This document shows, in pieces, positions 908-12,349 of a stretch of 17,935 nt of DNA (position 1 is its first letter; each line of letters opens with the position of its first letter). The translations under genes were made by a program, and so were the position numbers. The stretch covers positions 1 through 17,935 of the forward strand of contig DXJF01000100.1 in assembly GCA_019057375.1 (NCBI GenBank), read 5' to 3'. The DNA is from Candidatus Heimdallarchaeota archaeon. GTDB taxonomy: Archaea; Asgardarchaeota; Heimdallarchaeia; Heimdallarchaeales; Heimdallarchaeaceae. The notes under the pieces are model-generated. The model searched no databases, had not been told where the DNA came from, and was given only the letters and a program-made list of their open reading frames with translations.

Positions 908-3898
908 ATGGCAACTACAGTTGTAACCAATTCAGATTTATATGTTTTTGATAGTCTTATGTTATATAATTTTAAGATGCATAAGTCTACTGAATTATGT
1001 CTGTCTGAAGTTCCAATTGTTGTTATTTCAGGTGCCAATGGTAGTGGCAAAACACAGATTTTAGAAGCTCTGATTATGGCTATTGGTCATGTTCCTAATA
1101 GAGTCTCATTGAGTACGTATAAAGAGATTATAGGCCCCTTTGATAACTACTCCCAAATCCAGCTTAAACTGAATAATCCCCAACTTAGTGATAACAGAAT
1201 ATTCACAACTTCCGATCCTGATCTCATACCATTTATCGAGAAAGATTATTTTGTGATCGATGTGAAAATAAATCGCGAAGGAAATATCAGAAGAAAAATA
1301 ATTGATACGAAAGGTAAGGGTATAACCGTTACTAAAAGACAGATTCAGAATTTAATGAAAAACATAGGGATATTCCAGGATACTATGCTCAATTTCACTG
1401 AAGAAGGATATCTCAGCTCTTTTGCTGATGGTTCTCCTCATAAGAAATTAGATAGTTTATTAGTTGCAACTGGTTTGAAAGAAATATTTACTAGCTATAT
1501 TAATTCGAAGAAAAAAGTAGAAGAGAAGAAAAGGGAGCACTCTCCTTTAGTTATGCAGTTAGAAAAAGAGGAGAGCAAATTAGAAAGACTTAGGGAGAAC
1601 TTTGAAAGGATACAGAAAAAAAGAGAACTCATACAACGATATGAGGTTCTTGAAAGAGAACTAGTCTGGTTTAATGCAATTGAAAGTCAAAATCAATTTG
1701 AGGATGCAAACCAGAACTTAACCAGCAAAAAGAAAGAACTCAAAGAATTGGAAAAGAAACTTAATATTTCTTCGATTGATCAAGATAATTTACGTAAAGA
1801 GGTAAGAAAAGCAGAAGAAAATCTAGTAGATAGAAAAACTAGTATGAGGGAATTATCAGATCAGAAAAATAGGTTGGAAGGTCAGAAAGAAGAAAAAAAT
1901 CGAATGGTTCAGTCTTCGAAATCTCAGATAGCAAATATCGACTTGAAACTAAGCGAATTTGTGACCATTCAAACAGATGAAGGTTTTTCACAGAAAAAGC
2001 AATTACAGCAACAATTAGATGATGTTAATACACGTATTTTACAATTGAACAATGAGTTGCAGACTAGCCAAATTAATTTGAAAGACAAAGCAACTGAAGA
2101 AGACAATATAAAACAAAGAATATATGAAAGATCTCAGCTTTATGGAGAATTGTCTGACTATGAGAGGAAATTAATAAAAGATTGTATATTGTATAAGGAA
2201 AGAATACAAAATTCAGATTTTAAAAAGGAGATCATCGGACCTATATATGAGATCATCTCTATAAAGGAAGGTTTTGAAAATTATACAGATGTTGTAAAAG
2301 CATCTCTTGGAAGATATCTCTTTGGCTTTGTTGCTACTACTCATGCAGCTTATAAAGAAGCAAAAGACATTTACGATAATATTTTCCCAACCTATAAACC
2401 AAACTTCACAGTAGGGCGAATTTTAGAGGAAGAAAAAGGACCCAAACCTGATTATCTTACCAATCAATCATTACAGAGTAAACCCGAAGGCATAATTGAT
2501 TTTGCAGTTAATTTAATTGAAGCTCAATTTCAAGTTAAGTTATATCTGGTAAAGTTTGTAAGAATACTATTAGGCACTCCATCTTTACCTCCAAATCTTC
2601 TAACAGACTATGCAAAGCAATATAAAACCAACATTTTGACAACTGATTGTAGCAGCTTTTATCTTTCTCAAGAAGCATTTTCAAGACCCCCAAGAAGATA
2701 CAATGTAAAACTTAGTTTAGATCTCAATAAATACCAGTCAATTGAACGAATAAGAGAGCAACTACAATTGGTACTATTTGACATTGAAAAGATTACCGAA
2801 GATAAAATCAGAATTACTAGAAGTTTAGCTGAATTAGAAAACAGAAAACGAGAGCTAGAAAACCAGTTGAAACCTTGGAAAATGGGAACTGATGAAATTG
2901 AAAATGAATTTCTTAGGTTACAGCAAATCAAAAGTGCAGCAGAAATTTTAGTAAGAACCGAAACTGAAAACCTTTCTAAACTTGATGTGGAGATTACAAA
3001 GATTACTCATAACATAGTAGATATTGAGAAGGTTGTTACAGAACAGCAAAAACAGTATGATGAGATTAGAAAGAAACTTAATCATTTAAACGAAGAGATT
3101 AAGGAACTTTCAACAAGAAGAGACAAAAACCTTAAGTTGATAGATTTTCTTGAGATAGAGTTTTTAGATTTAAAAGAAGCATATGAAAATCTGAATAAAG
3201 AAGCAAAGGAGAAAGGAGAACCTCCTGAAAGTATTCGTTCAGATAAAGAAGATATTGCTTCCGAATATAATAAAGTTAAAGGACAGTTAGAATTATTAGA
3301 AATTACTCCAGAAGTATCACAAGATAGCATCGAAAAACAAGAACAGCAAGTTAGCATTTTGCAAGATGAAGTGAAAAATAATGAAATTCATCTAAAAAAT
3401 CTTAAGGAAGATTTAGAAAAGAGAATCAATGAATGGGAAGGAGGTCTTCATAATATTGTAGACCATCTGAACAAGATGCTGAATTTGCTTCTTCAAGATA
3501 TTTTTGTGAATATATCTATACAAATTCGAAATTATAATGATGAGAAGAGTGCAGGATTACATATAGAAGCTGAAACCAAGGGAGATAATAGGAGATATAG
3601 GCAGCTTTCAGGGGGAGAAAAAACACTGTTAGCTCAAGCAATCATTTTAGCTCTTCACATGATAAATCACTCTCCAATTCATGCAATAGATGAATTTACT
3701 CAAAAGCTTGATAAGAGAAATAAAGCTCTTGCTTTTTCCATGGCTTTAGCAACCTATAAAATCTCGAAGGAAAATAGGATAATTACTCCTCAATTCATTC
3801 TAATAACTCCCTCTCTTGATGATGTAGAACTCTCTGAAGAGTTTGCTCACAAAGTCTTGATTGAGAGCAAAGTAAAAGCTCCTGAGGTGAAAACATGA
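908..3898 (+). CDS. smc5/6: SMC5/6-family SMC ATPase (996 aa; head, coiled coil, hinge, coiled coil, head)
   Basis: Walker A GANGSGKT (1031-1054); Q-loop region NFTEEG; two long heptad-rich arms; central hinge starting IIGPIYEIISIKEGFENYTDVVKASLGRYLFGFV (from 2231); signature LSGGEKT (3605-3625); Walker B/D-loop AIDEFTQKLD; C-terminal QFILITP (3791-3811) with Pro in place of the H-loop His, as in Smc5/Smc6 and unlike Smc1-4, prokaryotic Smc or Rad50. Confidence 0.88.
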   Translation: MATTVVTNSDLYVFDSLMLYNFKMHKSTELCLSEVPIVVISGANGSGKTQILEALIMAIGHVPNRVSLSTYKEIIGPFDNYSQIQLKLNNPQLSDNRIFTTSDPDLIPFIEKDYFVIDVKINREGNIRRKIIDTKGKGITVTKRQIQNLMKNIGIFQDTMLNFTEEGYLSSFADGSPHKKLDSLLVATGLKEIFTSYINSKKKVEEKKREHSPLVMQLEKEESKLERLRENFERIQKKRELIQRYEVLERELVWFNAIESQNQFEDANQNLTSKKKELKELEKKLNISSIDQDNLRKEVRKAEENLVDRKTSMRELSDQKNRLEGQKEEKNRMVQSSKSQIANIDLKLSEFVTIQTDEGFSQKKQLQQQLDDVNTRILQLNNELQTSQINLKDKATEEDNIKQRIYERSQLYGELSDYERKLIKDCILYKERIQNSDFKKEIIGPIYEIISIKEGFENYTDVVKASLGRYLFGFVATTHAAYKEAKDIYDNIFPTYKPNFTVGRILEEEKGPKPDYLTNQSLQSKPEGIIDFAVNLIEAQFQVKLYLVKFVRILLGTPSLPPNLLTDYAKQYKTNILTTDCSSFYLSQEAFSRPPRRYNVKLSLDLNKYQSIERIREQLQLVLFDIEKITEDKIRITRSLAELENRKRELENQLKPWKMGTDEIENEFLRLQQIKSAAEILVRTETENLSKLDVEITKITHNIVDIEKVVTEQQKQYDEIRKKLNHLNEEIKELSTRRDKNLKLIDFLEIEFLDLKEAYENLNKEAKEKGEPPESIRSDKEDIASEYNKVKGQLELLEITPEVSQDSIEKQEQQVSILQDEVKNNEIHLKNLKEDLEKRINEWEGGLHNIVDHLNKMLNLLLQDIFVNISIQIRNYNDEKSAGLHIEAETKGDNRRYRQLSGGEKTLLAQAIILALHMINHSPIHAIDEFTQKLDKRNKALAFSMALATYKISKENRIITPQFILITPSLDDVELSEEFAHKVLIESKVKAPEVKT
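3884..3890 (+). promoter_or_regulatory. Shine-Dalgarno GAGGTGA for the 256-aa gene
   Basis: Archaeal-type SD 4 nt upstream of the ATG at 3895; ATGA start/stop overlap with the SMC gene. Confidence 0.75.
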
Positions 3899-4665
3899 CT
3901 GATCAAGATATTCTAGATGAAAGTTCTGATACAATTTCAATCTACATAGAAGAAAATAGAGAATGGGTTGAGAACATATTTCAATTGGTTTTCGAGCTCA
4001 AGAGGAAATATGGTAGATCGATAAGAAAGAAAGAAATTGTGAGACTTCTAGAATCAGAGGAAGATCGGTCCAAAGTTTCTGAGGCCTACCTATATTTGCA
4101 GAATAAAAAAGAAAATCTGTTAGATTCTGCTCTTTATGAAGACTTTATCAAAATGAATGATTTAAGAGAAAATGATTTTCTTGAAAAGCTGCTTTATCCT
4201 CAAGAAAGGTTAAAAACCTTTGTTGACAAAGTAAGAAGCTTATGTGTTCCTATAACTTATTTTTCAGGAACAACCCAAACATCATATGAAGAACCAATAA
4301 AAAATCTAACTGAAAAAATCATTGAACTGGAATCAAGTGAAAATATTGAGCTTTTTATGAAAAAATACAAAGGTTTCTTGAAAAGATTATCGAGCAATTT
4401 CCTAGATAAAGGTGAAATTTTGAATATTGAGAGTACTATTAAGGACAAACTGATAGGTAAGAGAATCAAGAGAACACAAATTAACACTCTTCTAACATCT
4501 TTAGAAGCAGAGATTCTATCCAAGATGATTAGCGAGAAAAAGATTCATGTCATTTTAGAGAATGATGTATTGATTTTTCAAACTGAAATAAAGGATGAAG
4601 AATCTGATGTTGTTTCTAGTTCAGTTCTCCTCTCACCTAAGAATTTCAAAGAAGAGAGTGACTAA
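3895..4665 (+). CDS. Probable kleisin-like (Nse4/ScpA-position) subunit of the SMC complex
   Basis: ATGA overlap with SMC, strong SD. Helical N-terminus, charged middle, and a C-terminal helix-helix-strand-strand segment (LLTSLEAEILSKMISEKKIHVILENDVLIFQ) compatible with a kleisin winged helix. The call rests mainly on gene context and size. Confidence 0.5.
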   Translation: MTDQDILDESSDTISIYIEENREWVENIFQLVFELKRKYGRSIRKKEIVRLLESEEDRSKVSEAYLYLQNKKENLLDSALYEDFIKMNDLRENDFLEKLLYPQERLKTFVDKVRSLCVPITYFSGTTQTSYEEPIKNLTEKIIELESSENIELFMKKYKGFLKRLSSNFLDKGEILNIESTIKDKLIGKRIKRTQINTLLTSLEAEILSKMISEKKIHVILENDVLIFQTEIKDEESDVVSSSVLLSPKNFKEESD

Positions 4666-4667
4666 TC

Positions 4668-5273
4668 ATGGAAGAAAATCATCTGGAACAATCCATTGAT
4701 TCAAATGAGATTGCTGAAGAAAATAATTTTTTACCTTCTTCTATTTCAGATGAAGAAAAAGGAGAACTATTTAGAGAGTTAACTACGATTTTATCTAGAA
4801 AATGGATAAAAGACAAAGTGACTGTTTTTGGTTGTTCTGAACTTGATTTATTATTAGCAACACGTTTTGATGTTCAAACCTTACGTGAAACAATTGAAGA
4901 ATACAAATCATTTGTGCAAATTTTGGGGCTAAATGTAATAGATTATGACATGGAAGGTGAAAAATGGTATTGCTTAAGATCCTCTAATTATGCACCTTCT
5001 GATTTACAGTCATCTGAATTAATAGTTCTGGGTACTATAATTGCTTTTCTAGAAAGTGATAAACAAAAACCTATAACTACAGAGAAGATTAAAGAAAAAT
5101 TGGTAGTCACTGGAAGGATGAAGGAATACCTAGTTGATAATAGTTTGAGAATATTAACAAGACTTGGCTATATCAGGAAGAAACAGAATGAATGGGAATA
5201 TAACTATCGAACCTACATTGAGTTTGGGGATGAAGAGAAAGATAAGATCGTAGAGGAGTTCAGAAGGATTTGA
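4668..5273 (+). CDS. KITE-family tandem winged-helix protein (Nse1/Nse3(MAGE)/ScpB/JetB-like)
   Basis: Two WH-like units: ...VQILGLNVIDYDMEGEKWYCL, then SSELIVLGTIIAFL...ITTEKIKEKL...DNSLRILTRLGYI...WEYNYRTYIEF. The ending resembles the GYI...R-x-x-x-E end of Nse1/MAGE WH-B. Starts 2 nt after the previous stop. Confidence 0.72.
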   Translation: MEENHLEQSIDSNEIAEENNFLPSSISDEEKGELFRELTTILSRKWIKDKVTVFGCSELDLLLATRFDVQTLRETIEEYKSFVQILGLNVIDYDMEGEKWYCLRSSNYAPSDLQSSELIVLGTIIAFLESDKQKPITTEKIKEKLVVTGRMKEYLVDNSLRILTRLGYIRKKQNEWEYNYRTYIEFGDEEKDKIVEEFRRI

Positions 5274-5725
5274 AGGAACAAGAAGCACTTTATTGCTTTA
5301 TTCGTTGTACTTTCTGTAATCAGATGAAAACTCTGAGAGATGCTGCTTTAGAAGGGTGGGAAGTTTGTGATCGATGTCAATTAGTATTTTGCAATGAATG
5401 TAAAAAAGACAATGAAGAAGAAGAATTATGTCCAGGGTCAGTCTATACCACAAAACATACTGCTAGTTTTGGACTTCTTCCTATAGAACAAATAATAGAA
5501 ACAGCAAGTAATATCGAGAAACAACCTAAAGAAAGCAAGTTTATTTCCAAGATATTTTTTGAAGATGAAAAAAAGAAAATTGAAATTCTCAAAAGCAGTA
5601 AAAAGAAGAAAGAACCCGCTGATTTTAGTATCGTAAGATTCCGAGAAGAACAATGGAGAAAATTCGGTACTGTTTTAGTCAAAAGGAAAGATGGTAAATT
5701 TCTAACCTGGGGTCAATTAGAATAA
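5270..5725 (+). CDS. Stand-alone Cys-rich Zn-finger protein (RING/PHD-like, Nse1-type spacing) with basic C-terminal region
   Basis: TTG start overlapping the upstream TGA (TTGA, 5270-5273), SD-like GAGGAG at 5253-5258. Motif C13-x2-C16-x16-C33-x2-C36-x4-C41-x2-C44-x9-C54(P)-x8-H63 (5306-5458). Confidence 0.7.
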   Translation: MKEQEALYCFIRCTFCNQMKTLRDAALEGWEVCDRCQLVFCNECKKDNEEEELCPGSVYTTKHTASFGLLPIEQIIETASNIEKQPKESKFISKIFFEDEKKKIEILKSSKKKKEPADFSIVRFREEQWRKFGTVLVKRKDGKFLTWGQLE

Positions 5726-5755: not shown

Positions 5756-8626
5756 TTATATCCCTGTGATTGCTTCTGCTCGAGAGCCTAGTATTACATT
5801 TGTTATGAAGAGACTGGTTATTTGTAATAACATTAGAAGCACTCCTATAGCACAGAAAATTTGGAACTTCAATGGATTCCATGCCATATACCATGTTATT
5901 GTTCCAGCTTTTGATGAGAATATCAAAAATATCGTCGTAGAGACTTCTGATAGACAATATAGGAAGGAAACTAGTGAACCAGCGAATATATTGAGGGAAA
6001 TTAATGGTATAGTAATTCTTGAAAAAGTTCTCATTCTAGAAGCACCTAAATTGAAGGAAGCTTCTTCTAGAACTGCATCCACTTGTTGTAACCCCGCATA
6101 AGCTGAACGAACCGTAAATGGTATTTTTCTTACTGTATAGCTCATTATTAGCAGAGTTACTGCAACTCCAATGAATGGATCTAATCGCAATCCTGCTGTG
6201 ATGTTAGCCATCATCTTGTTGAACCATGAAGGATTCCTGGTTGCTATTCCACTCCAATCAAAAGTTCGATAATAACCAATAGCTAAAACAATACCTGGGA
6301 TTGCGATAGGTAAGGTTACCAGTGCATCCAGAGCTTTTTTACCTACGAAGTTCTTTCTACTTATAACATACGCAGCAATGGAACCTATGATAATAATCAA
6401 GAGTGTTGCAAGGACGCTATAAACCAACGTATTGATTATATACGGCGGTATATTATACGTTGTAGATACAAATACCGCTCTGTAGTTTTCACCCGTGAAA
6501 GCTAGATCTGAGGGTTTCGTACCTCCGAGCGTTTCTAGAAACGACATCAGGATGACTCCTGTATGCACCAATAATGAGAATGCAAATAGTATAATCAAGA
6601 ATGGGTAGATGTAGAATAACTTCCATTTAGCTTTGGACATCCTGTATTGTCCTGCTCTACCTTTACTTACCATTGAATAAGTTCGTAAAGATACATACTT
6701 CCGAATCGCAAAGAACCCAATAAGTGCAATAATAAGGAGTATGCCTCCTAAGACACAGACTTCCGGCGTTATCGTAGCAGAACCCGCTTTCGAGTAATTT
6801 TCAAATATATAATAAGGTAGAAATTTCTTAGCACCAGTATCTCCCATTGCTGCAAAGATGATTGGGGTTCCTACATCTTCCATAGAAAGAATCAAAACTA
6901 ATATTGCTCCAGCTCCAATTCCTGGCATAGCTAATGGCAATGTAACAGAGGAGAATAAACGAAATTTTCCTGCTCCAAGATTCTCAGCTGATTCTTCCAT
7001 GCTTGGATCTATGTTCAAGAAGGCTGAAAAAGCATTAAGATAAACTAAAGCATAAAAATGCGATACTTGAACAAACACAATAGCGAACAGCCCTGAGAAG
7101 ATTAGCTTTGTCTGAAATGCTGGAATTAAGAAGAAATTGTTCAAAAATCCATTAGGTCCTAGAATTAACCTGAAACCCATACCTGATATGAACGGAGGTA
7201 TAATGAGCGGTGCAAGGGCTAGTACACTTACAAGTTTCTTCCCCGGAAACTCATACCTTGCTAGAACAAAAGCCAAAGCAGTACCAAGTATTACTGAAAA
7301 AATAGTAGTCAAGATTCCAAGAATAATAGTGTTCAGAACCACCCCATGATCTTTTCCGCTTAGAGTTATAACAGTAATCTCTATAGTATCTTCATATACA
7401 GCTATAAGAGTTAATTCAACTGAAACTTGAGAAGTATCTAGGATTTGAGTTCCTCCTTTTAGTTGAGAGAGGAAAATGAGATCATTTGTCGTATCAATGA
7501 AGATATCTTCTGTTCTATACACAGCTGTAGTGTAGTTGTTGACACTTTCAAGATTTGATGGATTAGAGACATCAAAAATTCGAATGCCATACTCAAACGT
7601 TATGTCATTAATGGAGATGAAGTAACCATAATTGCCTTCAACCCAAACCTGGAATAATCTTTCAACATCACCAACATTATAGTAATCAACACGCACCATA
7701 TTTAATGGGTCTGTAATGTTGAAAATAACTAAACCTTTGCTTCCTAAGGTGATGTAAGCTAAGTCCCCCTCTATATCTATATCCTGTGTTGTTAAAGTTC
7801 CAACTACCGGATCATCATTATAATGCGCTATCTCTAAGGGATTGACAGGATCAGAAATGTCATAGATTTTAATTCCTGTTGTGTAGCCTACAACATAGAC
7901 AAGGCCATTATCAATTACAACATTATAAGCATTCGTAACAACATCCACTGTAGATAGAACTTTTGGATCTGCTGGGTCTGTAACATTAATAATAGCGAAT
8001 CCCTCTCCATTGATATCTAAAATAACTAAATTGTTTTCAACAGCAATAAAATTAGTAGTATTAGCAATATCATACATATGACACATAGGAGCAAAGCTTT
8101 CGTGAACATCAGAAATGTTGAAAATAACTAATCCGCTCTGACTTGCAGCAGTGTATAACAAATCATCTTGTATCACTAATTCTCTAAAAATACTGACTTC
8201 TTCGTAATACTGCCTTATTTCCGTAGTCTCATTGGGTTGCGAGACATCTAGAATCTCTATACCTTCACTTCTTTCAGCAACAAAAGCAATATTATTATCA
8301 ACAGCAATAGCTGCAGCTGGACCTCCTTTATCTTGTTTATCTTTTGAAAAGAACTGGGTTTGATTATCTCCTGGAAAATTAAAGAATAAAGTATCACTAA
8401 AGACATTAGCTATGGGCGCACCAGACCATTGACCATTGAAATAAACAGCACCAGACAGAACTGAGAATAGTGGGATTACCATCCACACAATAAAAACAAA
8501 AGCTACAAGGACGATGATGAAATTTGTCGAAGGTTCTCGCAAAAGTTTAACATAAAGAAAATCAATTATTGATCTTCTCTTTTTACTCTTTCCCTCTTCA
8601 TTTGTTTTTTTACTAGAGCTAGCCAT
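5756..8626 (-). CDS. Fe3+/thiamine-family ABC transporter permease (FbpB/ThiP-like, two BPD_transp_1 units) with inserted LVIVD-repeat beta-propeller
   Basis: Two EAA loops (DPSMEESAENLGAG; DAVLEEASFNLGAS) and typical helices (NTIILG, LAPLIIPPF, TLPIAIPGIVLAIG). Seven G-x-x-I-x-[DN]-x-[ST]-[DNQ]-P-like repeats between TM1 and TM2. ATG at 8626 (MASSSKK) is preferred over the track's TTG at 8635. Confidence 0.88.
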   Translation of the reverse strand: MASSSKKTNEEGKSKKRRSIIDFLYVKLLREPSTNFIIVLVAFVFIVWMVIPLFSVLSGAVYFNGQWSGAPIANVFSDTLFFNFPGDNQTQFFSKDKQDKGGPAAAIAVDNNIAFVAERSEGIEILDVSQPNETTEIRQYYEEVSIFRELVIQDDLLYTAASQSGLVIFNISDVHESFAPMCHMYDIANTTNFIAVENNLVILDINGEGFAIINVTDPADPKVLSTVDVVTNAYNVVIDNGLVYVVGYTTGIKIYDISDPVNPLEIAHYNDDPVVGTLTTQDIDIEGDLAYITLGSKGLVIFNITDPLNMVRVDYYNVGDVERLFQVWVEGNYGYFISINDITFEYGIRIFDVSNPSNLESVNNYTTAVYRTEDIFIDTTNDLIFLSQLKGGTQILDTSQVSVELTLIAVYEDTIEITVITLSGKDHGVVLNTIILGILTTIFSVILGTALAFVLARYEFPGKKLVSVLALAPLIIPPFISGMGFRLILGPNGFLNNFFLIPAFQTKLIFSGLFAIVFVQVSHFYALVYLNAFSAFLNIDPSMEESAENLGAGKFRLFSSVTLPLAMPGIGAGAILVLILSMEDVGTPIIFAAMGDTGAKKFLPYYIFENYSKAGSATITPEVCVLGGILLIIALIGFFAIRKYVSLRTYSMVSKGRAGQYRMSKAKWKLFYIYPFLIILFAFSLLVHTGVILMSFLETLGGTKPSDLAFTGENYRAVFVSTTYNIPPYIINTLVYSVLATLLIIIIGSIAAYVISRKNFVGKKALDALVTLPIAIPGIVLAIGYYRTFDWSGIATRNPSWFNKMMANITAGLRLDPFIGVAVTLLIMSYTVRKIPFTVRSAYAGLQQVDAVLEEASFNLGASRMRTFSRITIPLISLNIFAGSLVSFLYCLSEVSTTIFLIFSSKAGTITWYMAWNPLKFQIFCAIGVLLMLLQITSLFITNVILGSRAEAITGI
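7391..8320 (-). repeat. Seven LVIVD-type repeats (about 42-49 aa each) inside the permease
   Basis: GIEILDVSQP, GLVIFNISDV, GFAIINVTDP, GIKIYDISDP, GLVIFNITDP, GIRIFDVSNP, GTQILDTSQV. An identical 18-mer AATGTTGAAAATAACTAA occurs at 7715-7732 and 8114-8131. Confidence 0.85.
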
Positions 8627-8633
8627 TTTATTC

Positions 8634-8647
8634 AACCAAATTTGGTT
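8634..8647. promoter_or_regulatory. Perfect 14-bp palindrome AACCAAATTTGGTT upstream of the permease start
   Basis: Self-complementary, 7 nt upstream of the ATG at 8626 on -. A BRE/TATA-like CAAAAAGCATTAAG lies at about 8664-8677 on -. Confidence 0.4.
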
Positions 8648-10475: not shown

Positions 10476-12077
10476 CTAATGAAAAATAACTTTTTTCTGT
10501 TCATATCCTATTTTATTTCCATTGTCGTCTTGGAATATAAATTCAATGAATGTAGGACCTAAAAAGTTTGTTGCAGGAATTTCAACCATTTTAGGTTCAT
10601 GAGAATTAGCTTCCAAAAGCATTGGATAAAGGTGGTTAGTGTATATTCCCCCTCTAGTAAAAGAAACTCTTAAAGTTCCTATTATTCCTTCCTCACTACG
10701 ATTGTATAGATGTACTGGGATACTGAAAGGCTTGTGAATTGGGGCTGTATCAGGTGCTGTTACTCTAATTTCAATGTTTATATCTTGTTTGTTTAGATCC
10801 AGGCTTGGTAATGAAAACTTCCAGTTAAGGTTTTCAAATAGAGTACCTTTAGTTTTCCCATAATCTTCATTACTAGTTCCCTTCTTACCCTCAGCTAAAC
10901 CCTTATCCCACTTGACTTCTTTATGAGCATTAATAGAGATTTCATGTTGGTTCATATCATCATAGCTGTAACGCACTTCTCTAATGTTTGAATTCCCTAA
11001 AGTATTCCCCCTCTGTAAGATTATACAACTAGGATTTCTATACAAATATCTAAAATCATGCTGCAAAGTAGGGTCTATTGGGAACCAAACACCATTAGCA
11101 AAAAACTCAGCTTGTGAGTGATGAACCCAGCCTTCATATTCACTTAGAATGATGCTTGTAGTTAATCTAGCTGGAACATTACCTGCTCTACATAAACTTA
11201 CGAATAGGGATGAAAATTCTGTGCAATCTCCTAATTTGTTTTCGATCGCGTATGTAGCCCCATAATCTCCATCTTGGGGAACATAGACTAAATTCTCCTT
11301 TACATACTTCAAAAACGCTAAAACTTTACTTAATGGAGAATGGGAAAGGTATTTTTTAGCTATTTTAGCAATACTATCATTAGAGGATTCAAGATATGGT
11401 TCAGATTTGGTATATTTCTGGTAAACCTGAGGATAAAGGGTTTCGATATTTTTTTCTTCACCTCTTAAACGTGTAATATCATAAGCAACCAAACGAGTAA
11501 CAATATCTGCTTTATACGCAATAGTAATCTTTTCTCTAGGATTAATTTGATGAAAATAAAATCTTAGCCATCGATTCCCTTCATTATCAGTAATTAGTTT
11601 TGTTGGCTTGTGATTGCTCTCAACTTTCAATACCTGCTGAATAGGAGAGATAGAAGGCGGAATCATAACATCAAGAACAAAGTTGTTCAGAGGAAAATTA
11701 TTTGGATTTTTTAGTTGAACTCCATAGAATAGTATCCAACGATATATCAAATGTTTATTTGTACGAATATTAACCTTTTCTCTTCTCTTATAATCTCCTT
11801 CAACTTGCAGGAAGTATGTACCAGAATATAAATCAGGGGTTACTGGAAAAGAGTAAATTTTCCTTAAACCCGTTTCTTCTAATCTTACCTGATCAGAGTC
11901 AATAATAGTACCTATGGGCGAAATTAACAGAATGTGTAATTTTTGATTTCTTCTACTACCAACAAAAGGAACATCTTCCTCTTTGCCAGAAATTAATATA
12001 CTATCCCCTATCTCTACAGCCAAATCACTAGATAAAGGTCTTGCTTTATTCTGTTTAACATGAACAATTTTAATCAT
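10476..12077 (-). CDS. Transglutaminase-like superfamily protein (Cys-His-Asp triad) with N- and C-terminal Ig-like domains
   Basis: GDCTEFSSLFVSLCRAGNVPAR, HSQAEFF, WFPIDPT. N-terminal MG2-like LISPIG...FPVTPDLYSGTYFLQV; C-terminal RVTAPD...IPVHLYN...GPTFIEF. Start uncertain: ATG 12077 or TTG 12146. Confidence 0.8.
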   Translation of the reverse strand: MIKIVHVKQNKARPLSSDLAVEIGDSILISGKEEDVPFVGSRRNQKLHILLISPIGTIIDSDQVRLEETGLRKIYSFPVTPDLYSGTYFLQVEGDYKRREKVNIRTNKHLIYRWILFYGVQLKNPNNFPLNNFVLDVMIPPSISPIQQVLKVESNHKPTKLITDNEGNRWLRFYFHQINPREKITIAYKADIVTRLVAYDITRLRGEEKNIETLYPQVYQKYTKSEPYLESSNDSIAKIAKKYLSHSPLSKVLAFLKYVKENLVYVPQDGDYGATYAIENKLGDCTEFSSLFVSLCRAGNVPARLTTSIILSEYEGWVHHSQAEFFANGVWFPIDPTLQHDFRYLYRNPSCIILQRGNTLGNSNIREVRYSYDDMNQHEISINAHKEVKWDKGLAEGKKGTSNEDYGKTKGTLFENLNWKFSLPSLDLNKQDINIEIRVTAPDTAPIHKPFSIPVHLYNRSEEGIIGTLRVSFTRGGIYTNHLYPMLLEANSHEPKMVEIPATNFLGPTFIEFIFQDDNGNKIGYEQKKVIFH

Positions 12078-12349
12078 GTGGAAGCCACTACTTAGTAATG
12101 CAAATAGGCAAAGAATTATAGTACTTAAACCCGTTCCTACTATCAAAAGTAGCTTAAAATTTCAATTTAAATATACGTATTATTGTCGGAGTGTCTCAAG
12201 TGACCGTTTTCAGCGTTTTTCCGATTCATTCCAATTATTGAAATAAATCCAATTTTGAGGATTTCTAGCTCTTGACAATATTTTTGTCGGAATCCTCATT
12301 TCAATTTTTTCATCAGAAAAGTTTAATTAGGAGAATATTTCTGTATTAG

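Follow-up and report, generated by a model that had tools for sequence, protein, structure and literature searches.

A predicted RING-like zinc protein encoded by the fourth gene of a putative SMC5/6-like operon in Asgard archaea

The window analysed here is an entire contig of 17.9 kb (DXJF01000100.1, 17,935 nucleotides) from a metagenome-assembled genome of a Candidatus Heimdallarchaeota archaeon, and it carries a short operon in which a gene for a small RING-like zinc protein follows three genes that resemble those of an SMC5/6-type complex. The genome measures 3.47 Mb, is 89% complete, and belongs to the family Heimdallarchaeaceae, of which Ca. Heimdallarchaeum aukensis and Ca. Heimdallarchaeum endolithica, both with closed genomes, are also members; the genus of the window includes Heimdallarchaeota AB_125. 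Comparisons were made across a phylum sample of 400 genomes, in which Asgard families are designated by f-numbers, the family of the window being f1. Four genes lie head to tail on the + strand of the window: an SMC-like ATPase (908..3898, 996 aa), a candidate kleisin (3895..4665, 256 aa), a KITE subunit (4668..5273, 201 aa), and the RING-like zinc protein, hereafter the finger (5270..5725, 151 aa). The stop codon of the SMC-like gene overlaps the start of the next gene at 3895-3898, and the candidate kleisin owes its name to its position, since in every locus its gene is flanked by those of the SMC and the KITE. The KITE subunit consists of a disordered N-terminus followed by two winged helices, and the finger of a predicted binuclear zinc domain (residues 9-65; 5294..5464, + strand) and a conserved C-terminal motif (residues 119-150; 5624..5719, + strand) that is presumed to be a docking element.

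Operons encoding an SMC, a kleisin and a kite related to those of SMC5/6 have been described in TACK and Asgard archaea (van Hooff et al., bioRxiv 10.1101/2024.01.07.573240). These were presented as systems of three subunits, the RING of Nse1 being called a eukaryotic innovation absent from archaeal kites, and the supplement to that work makes no mention of a zinc or RING gene in the archaeal operons. Judged from sequence and gene order, the present operon appears to be of the same kind. Its first product matches Pfam SMC_N (3.2e-23), and its sequence matches in the PDB have SMC5 (2.2e-9) and SMC6 (8e-8) on top with prokaryotic Smc close behind, so that by a small margin it seems nearest to SMC5/6; the kite is Nse1/3-like, and the putative kleisin is placed by position in the same operon. 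One of the loci cited by van Hooff et al. for an SMC5/6-related SMC and an 'Nse1-3-related' kite, the LC_3 contig MDVS01000144.1, carries homologues of both the KITE and the finger described here. Unlike the operon as described in that work, the one studied here has a fourth, RING-like gene that is constant in eight Asgard families, and no description of such a gene was found in the papers searched.

The assignment of the third gene comes largely from predicted structure. An AlphaFold2 (AF2) model of the 4668-5273 protein (pLDDT 82) has the tandem winged-helix fold of the KITE part of Nse1, and its best fold match is 7dg2_A, from the Nse1-Nse3-Nse4 complex (VIA Z 11.1 over 163 residues; Foldseek E 1.1e-4), which ranks first in two independent structure searches. 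The next matches are ScpB (Z 9.6), NSE1 and MAGE-G1 chains, MukE, and JetB, with 5hvq_C at E 2.4e-4; the identities of Nse1 and Nse3 chains among these matches are presumed from chain lengths. Sequence methods return winged-helix and weak MksE signals only, and the nearest named cluster of the ESM language model is MAGE/Nse3 (0.88). The window's genome (89% complete) yielded a single KITE of this family, and the archaeal KITE is apparently a homodimer, in contrast to the Nse1/Nse3 pair. Prediction of a complex of two KITE copies, the finger and two zinc ions gave a median ipSAE of 0.27 against a mark of 0.32, a value that speaks neither for nor against binding. Weak matches to the KITE profile in f14 and f5 were rejected, as they lie in other loci that are devoid of a finger, one in a different SMC-like ATPase cluster (G116) and another in a different SMC operon (G079).

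The finger gene is translationally coupled to the KITE gene and yet distinct from it. At the junction (5270..5273, + strand) the TTG start codon of the finger overlaps the TGA stop codon of the KITE gene (5271-5273) in the tetranucleotide TTGA. A preliminary description of this DNA, made from the sequence alone, had read the pair as a WH-WH KITE gene overlapping a separate gene for an Nse1-type zinc finger; the overlap is real, the KITE call agrees with the fold match to 7dg2_A at Z 11.1, and the finger is a separate, tightly coupled cistron in all genomes examined. The accompanying claim that a single-base deletion near 5270 would put the two open reading frames (ORFs) in frame was wrong, because the finger frame is the KITE frame -1 (5270-4668 = 602), and to fuse them one base would have to be inserted or two deleted. 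All 20 assemblies of the same genus share the TTGA junction. Elsewhere it takes the form of GTGA in Ca. Heimdallarchaeum, ATGA in f12, and a gap of 0-3 nt in f4 and Hodarchaeales, and in f6 20 nt lie between the two genes, including a Shine-Dalgarno sequence, GAGGTGA. We also considered programmed -1 frameshifting at the TTGA overlap and rejected it: a slippery heptamer is lacking, and in distant lineages the spacer comes with a ribosome-binding site of its own.

The search for fused genes that had been proposed as a check of the preliminary description found none. The finger family is small, comprising 43 clusters among 1.8 billion representative proteins in an index-free profile search, most of them 110-192 aa long, and no KITE-finger fusion was present among those representatives or in a search limited to longer proteins. 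Three long matches to the finger profile (P0068, Ig repeats; P0075, P0076, Stc1 fingers) were rejected as spurious repeat matches. These data bear on the trivial possibility that the two ORFs are really one fused Nse1 orthologue, broken by an assembly indel or by decay into a pseudogene. Its sole encouragement is the 4-nt extent of the overlap, and it retains virtually no probability: the two-ORF structure recurs in 20 of 20 same-genus assemblies and in six further families with varied junctions, no open frame at the finger locus falls outside 148-192 aa, and no fused protein was found in the databases searched. An assembly artefact is thus excluded by the comparative data.

The distribution of the finger follows that of the operon. 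The order SMC-kleisin-KITE-finger, with tight coupling, was found in f1, f2, f4, f6, f8, and f12, for which loci were fetched, and adjacency of KITE and finger also in f7 and f29, giving eight Asgard families in total. Strong matches to the finger and to the KITE fall in the same families of the 400-genome sample, namely f1 (27 of 30 genomes for each), f2, f4, f6, f7, f8, f12, and f29, and neither gave more than weak matches, if any, in f3 (0 of 12), f5, f20 (135 genomes), and the remaining families. Lack of co-occurrence with the SMC operon elsewhere had been named as a refutation of the preliminary description; the finger co-occurs with it throughout. The family occurs in Hodarchaeales and other Heimdallarchaeia, and on one Hodarchaeales contig the KITE-finger pair is intact though the SMC and kleisin genes are divergent from it. 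In one f6 genome (G056; L023 18105-18482) a second finger paralogue, ~125 aa long and limited to the zinc domain, is encoded ~10 kb downstream from the operon, after genes for HisRS and an aromatic amino acid lyase; other f6 genomes carry it at different places.

The zinc domain of the finger is defined by eight predicted ligands, C13, C16, C33, C36, C41, C44, C54, and H63, with the spacing C13-x2-C16-x16-C33-x2-C36-x4-C41-x2-C44-x9-C54(P)-x8-H63, as the first reading of the sequence had it. All eight and W30 are invariant in 13 homologues (alignment A1, 44-94% identity), and all nine residues are nearly so in 30 homologues down to 21% identity (alignment A3), where C33, C36, and C54 are invariant, C13, C41, and C44 are conserved in at least 90% of members, C, H or D may serve as the second ligand, and most members have H63. 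C9 is unconserved and no ligand. Among 20 congeneric genomes the ratio of nonsynonymous to synonymous substitution rates (dN/dS) is 0.13 for the whole finger, 0.14 for the zinc domain, and 0.025 for the C-terminal 32 residues; the overall value shows that the finger is a real, constrained gene under purifying selection.

In an AF2 model of the finger the N-terminal domain is predicted with confidence (residues ~10-80, pLDDT about 83) and the C-terminus poorly. Four structure searches returned almost exclusively RING, U-box, ZZ or SP-RING domains. The RNF4 RING was matched at Z 5.4 (root-mean-square deviation 2.4 A over 58 of 64 residues, TM 0.65 by target), Ring1b, TFIIH p44, and the SP-RING of Mms21/Nse2 at Z 4.3-4.4, and further matches include GID/CTLH RINGs and the Prp19 U-box. 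Matches in the ESM Atlas are to Prok-RING and RNF207 clusters; a protein atlas search with the finger gave no usable match. In the profile check against RING-like, FYVE and B-box models that the preliminary description suggested, RING, FYVE and B-box models were matched, all below threshold and each by a minority of the 30 members (zf-RING_UBOX 1.9e-4, zf-C3HC4 1e-3, FYVE_2 1.8e-3, B-box 0.03), the IBR model also matches the family below threshold, and the Nse1 RING model PF08746 gave no match. When the family profiles were compared with all PDB chain sequences, RNF4, NOT4 (E 0.19), and TFIIH p44 were matched, again below threshold. The RNF4 RING, the C4C4 RINGs of NOT4 and TFIIH p44, and U-box domains are the best matches by fold and, below threshold, by sequence. 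Like small RING E3s, the finger has a predicted beta-beta-alpha core, and the central-helix pattern C-x2-C-[ILV]-x2-[FYW] and the C-P dipeptide are kept in most lineages; it differs from them in its last ligand pair, C-x8-H versus C-x2-C, in its SMC operon setting, and in reaching the threshold of no curated model. Eight ligands in four pairs and a predicted cross-brace fold, which bears on the question of topology put to structure prediction by the preliminary description, are what is expected of a RING/U-box-like domain, and we conclude that the domain probably belongs to the cross-brace RING superfamily, whatever its sub-type.

Nse1 is a KITE protein with a C-terminal vRING of C4HC3 signature that acts as a ubiquitin ligase with Ubc13/Mms2 (PMC8750328). 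The resemblance to it is one of architecture: in both cases a tandem winged-helix KITE is followed, in the same order, by what appears to be a two-zinc RING-superfamily module, within an SMC5/6-type complex, with a plausible tie to ubiquitin-type conjugation. It is on this basis that the pair may be read as a true 'split Nse1', in which the finger would be an orthologue or ancestor of the Nse1 RING, joined to a KITE by gene fusion before the last eukaryotic common ancestor. The overlap of the two genes, the best fold match of the KITE to a chain of the Nse1-Nse3-Nse4 complex, the presence of the family in Hodarchaeales and other Heimdallarchaeia, and the fold class shared by the finger and the Nse1 RING all agree with such a history. 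The spacing of ligands 3-6, C-x2-C-x4-[C/H]-x2-C, is like that of Nse1 and PHD-type fingers. The x4 spacing is, however, common to PHD and other C4C4 fingers, and TFIIH p44, a C4C4-type finger with the same spacing, is itself among the weak matches.

More direct comparisons speak against the 'Nse1-type' label that the finger was first given. PF08746 is silent at the locus in a six-frame search at E<=10 (its matches elsewhere in the window's genome were rejected as spurious sites), and the A1 and A3 profiles match no Nse1 chain in the PDB at E<=10. No Nse1 chain is found in the top 50 fold matches of the finger, an omission that does not exclude relatedness, while RNF4, U-boxes and the Nse2 SP-RING are there. 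The finger is C7H, unlike the C4HC3 of Nse1 (PMC8750328), it is encoded as a polypeptide of its own, it has an additional conserved C-terminal motif, and no fused intermediate exists in the databases searched. The claim that the finger is the ancestor of the Nse1 RING is evolutionary and is compatible with a role as a fourth subunit; the positive evidence for such ancestry is gene order and fold class, and on balance we regard it as unlikely. The observation behind the preliminary description is confirmed and its interpretation partly supported.

The second half of the finger, ~85 residues (66-151), had been overlooked in that description, and it too is conserved. It comprises a helix, a variable basic linker, and the motif EExWRxxGxVxVKRxRGKFxTWE, which is conserved and constrained more than any other part of the protein; the C-terminus is basic. 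A profile of the motif found no meaningful relative in Pfam or the PDB, and we know of no counterpart of it in Nse1, which is a further point against orthology with the Nse1 RING. RING-like paralogues that lie within the ubiquitin-like conjugation cassette described below keep all eight ligands and are devoid of the C-terminal motif. Because of this difference, the data fit a modular protein, in which the zinc domain would serve conjugation machinery and the C-terminal motif would serve the SMC complex.

In sister lineages the operon is accompanied by genes for a ubiquitin-like conjugation system. In f6 the finger gene is followed, on the same strand, by genes for a Prok-JAB peptidase, a ThiF-type E1, a 103-aa protein, an E2-like protein of ~255 aa, and a 98-aa protein. 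The 103-aa protein ends in Gly and is a candidate modifier. The E2-like protein has an invariant LPR-YP...HPR...G-AC motif, and all 29 of its 29 PDB matches are E2 enzymes (best E 0.0098); neither it nor the candidate modifier has a curated family match. JAB and E1 genes also lie downstream of the finger in f8 and on a metagenome contig of 94 kb. A third arrangement is found in f12 (19 genomes), where the cassette is upstream of the SMC operon: a divergent operon beside the SMC gene encodes the modifier, the E2-like protein, the 98-aa protein, a RING-like paralogue, and a transglutaminase-like protein, with JAB and E1 just beyond. Among the genomes sampled, the E2-like protein is found in finger-bearing families only (10 of 12 genomes in f6, 2 of 2 in f7, 1 of 1 in f8, and 19 of 19 in f12) and in none of the finger-less families. 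Because the same genes occur in three different arrangements, we argue that the association of cassette and operon is functional and not chance synteny, and it gives independent support to the link with ubiquitin-like ligation that the preliminary description had put forward.

With JAB, a ThiF-type E1, an E2-like protein with HPx...C, a small candidate modifier, and a small RING-like protein, the cassette resembles the prokaryotic E1-E2-JAB-Ubl (ubiquitin-like) cassettes of Caldiarchaeum and Asgard archaea (PMC5654768, PMC6043591) and of bacterial Bil-type systems. It differs from these in being attached, in the sister lineages, to an SMC5/6-like operon, and in that no curated family is matched by its E2-like protein or its modifier. 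Repeated (R/K)[VI]x[IL][IL] cores followed by acidic runs occur at the C-terminal ends of the E2-like protein, the 98-aa protein and the RING-like paralogues (L023 10724-11796; L069 5021-6402); these, by their sequence, resemble SUMO-interaction motifs and could be non-covalent modifier-binding sites. The transglutaminase-like gene of f12 overlaps the gene for the RING-like paralogue. The window itself encodes a transglutaminase-like protein (10476-12146, - strand) with 28% identity over 349 aa (E 4e-38) to that of the f12 cassette (L069 3420-5024), and in f1 this gene lies 5-7 kb downstream of the finger in convergent orientation in G009, G001, and Ca. Heimdallarchaeum (G027); descent from a former cassette and plain synteny are both conceivable explanations.

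The genome of the window has general ubiquitin machinery away from the operon, including ubiquitin, E1, and two clear UQ_con E2s. On another contig (C132; L077 5730-9773), ubiquitin (78 aa), E1, a UEV-Vps23-Vps28 fusion (482 aa), and Vps36/EAP30 form a cluster, which is the known Asgard ubiquitin-ESCRT neighbourhood. This canonical ubiquitin-E1 cluster with ESCRT genes contrasts with the dedicated cassettes of the sister lineages. A gene for a Ras-family small GTPase lies ~2 kb upstream of the cluster (L077 3146-3682).

An SMC operon joined to a conjugation cassette could also encode a defence system and not a housekeeping chromosome complex; in such a system a Wadjet-like SMC complex would act against foreign DNA together with a Bil/CBASS-like Ubl module. 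The anti-phage Bil systems have the same composition of JAB, E1, E2, and Ubl, and in PADLOC the E1 and JAB proteins are generically similar to CBASS E1-E2 and JAB models and the SMC to LmuB/JetC. Eukaryotic SMC5/6, moreover, restricts extrachromosomal DNA (PMC10586767). The likeness to Wadjet (JetABCD) is nevertheless confined to a weak similarity of the SMC to JetC/LmuB: the KITE, the kleisin, the finger, the E2-like protein, and the modifier have no PADLOC match, and no nuclease or JetD-type gene is present in the operon. Furthermore, the operon is single copy, is found in 27 of 30 f1 genomes, and keeps stable chromosomal neighbours in different genera, with a surface protein upstream and an ABC transporter downstream. 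This single-copy, family-wide and syntenic pattern is typical of core genes and not of defence islands, and a defence role appears very unlikely.

Taken together, these observations make it somewhat probable, in our judgement, that the 151-aa protein is the fourth, E3-like subunit of an Asgard SMC5/6-like complex, and that ancestrally it was an adaptor for a ubiquitin-like conjugation set. The complex would consist of the SMC, the candidate kleisin, a homodimeric Nse1/3-like KITE, and the finger as a dedicated fourth subunit, the N-terminal half of which would fold as a two-zinc domain of the RING superfamily. The C-terminal motif would dock the finger onto the complex, most likely onto the KITE/kleisin module, because the finger gene is translationally coupled to that of the KITE. 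In the ancestral state, the finger would bind zinc and act as an E3-like adaptor that brings E1, the E2-like protein, the small modifier, and JAB to the DNA-bound SMC complex or to its substrates, as Nse1 and Nse2 do for eukaryotic SMC5/6. The data themselves establish how the genes are arranged and conserved, which fold class is predicted, the constant pairing of finger and KITE, and the cassette beside the operon in sister lineages; attachment to the complex, binding of zinc and ligase activity are inferred. In Heimdallarchaeaceae, where the cassette was not found, the finger would use the general ubiquitin machinery of Asgard archaea or keep a structural role only.

A number of observations weigh against a fourth, E3-like subunit. 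The candidate kleisin, assigned by position only, has no significant match to Pfam, NCBIfam or PDB profiles. No curated Pfam model of the RING clan is matched by the finger above its cut-off, and the fold Z scores are modest (about 5), as expected for a domain of 60 residues, and come from homogeneous lists. In LC_3 (L067, MDVS01000144.1, 1104-7501) an FtsX/ABC-transporter set is inserted between the KITE and finger genes, the sole exception seen to their adjacency where contigs allow. Neither the dedicated E2-like protein nor JAB was found in the window's genome or in any of the 30 f1 genomes. Finally, in the window's genus K45 and N48, neither of them hydrophobic, occupy two positions of the central helix which, by analogy with c-Cbl/UbcH7, we take to contact the E2 in RING E3s.

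The last two points lend themselves to a different account, in which the finger, at least in the window's genus, is a purely structural or regulatory zinc subunit that has no ligase role and stabilises the KITE/kleisin module or binds DNA. Loss of the cassette and the substitutions K45/N48 are the reasons for entertaining a mainly structural role in this genus, and the highly conserved, basic C-terminus agrees with it, as does the structural part that the Nse1 vRING is documented to play within the Nse1/3/4 trimer (PMC8750328). On the other hand, the ligands and fold of the zinc domain are still under purifying selection in the genus (dN/dS 0.14), paralogues with the same domain are found inside the Ubl cassette of f12, and the genome keeps ubiquitin, E1, and E2s, and we consider it improbable that the finger is structural to the exclusion of any ligase role.

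With such a gene in the operon, and a conjugation cassette beside it in sister lineages, the ligase arm of SMC5/6 may predate the eukaryotes. To our knowledge, SMC5/6 is the least understood eukaryotic SMC complex, and no other carries ubiquitin and SUMO ligases among its own subunits. Reconstructions of its evolution count the Nse1 RING as an addition made in eukaryotes. The constant presence of a RING-like fourth gene and its physical linkage, in several lineages, to a conjugation cassette suggest that the coupling of SMC complexes to protein tagging arose in archaea, and a prokaryotic system of four to nine genes would make the purpose of that coupling accessible to biochemistry. A more extended scenario is that the Asgard ancestor of eukaryotes had an SMC5/6-type complex whose dedicated RING-like E3 subunit was connected to a Ubl cascade, and that the Nse1 vRING, or the ligase arm more generally, descends from the separate finger gene by its fusion to the neighbouring KITE gene. 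This scenario seems to us doubtful; if it were true, the RING of Nse1 would be an archaeal inheritance and not a eukaryotic innovation.

The genes that flank the operon lie outside the four-gene unit discussed here. Upstream, an open ORF at 3-818 (271 aa) was considered as a partner of the SMC and rejected, as it is the end of an Ig-like/CARDB surface protein of ~1030 aa. Downstream, the ABC transporter genes are convergent with the operon, and one gene there (5756-8635, - strand) encodes a 959-aa ABC permease (BPD_transp_1) with LVIVD beta-propeller repeats in its N-terminal part; this gene is also found downstream of the operon in G001 and G027. In Ca. Heimdallarchaeum aukensis (G027; L025 12660-16863) a stand-alone SMC N-terminal head fragment of 214 aa (AAA_23/SMC_N) is encoded a short way upstream of the full SMC gene, with a copy of the Ig-like surface-protein gene on either side, and looks like the remnant of a local duplication.

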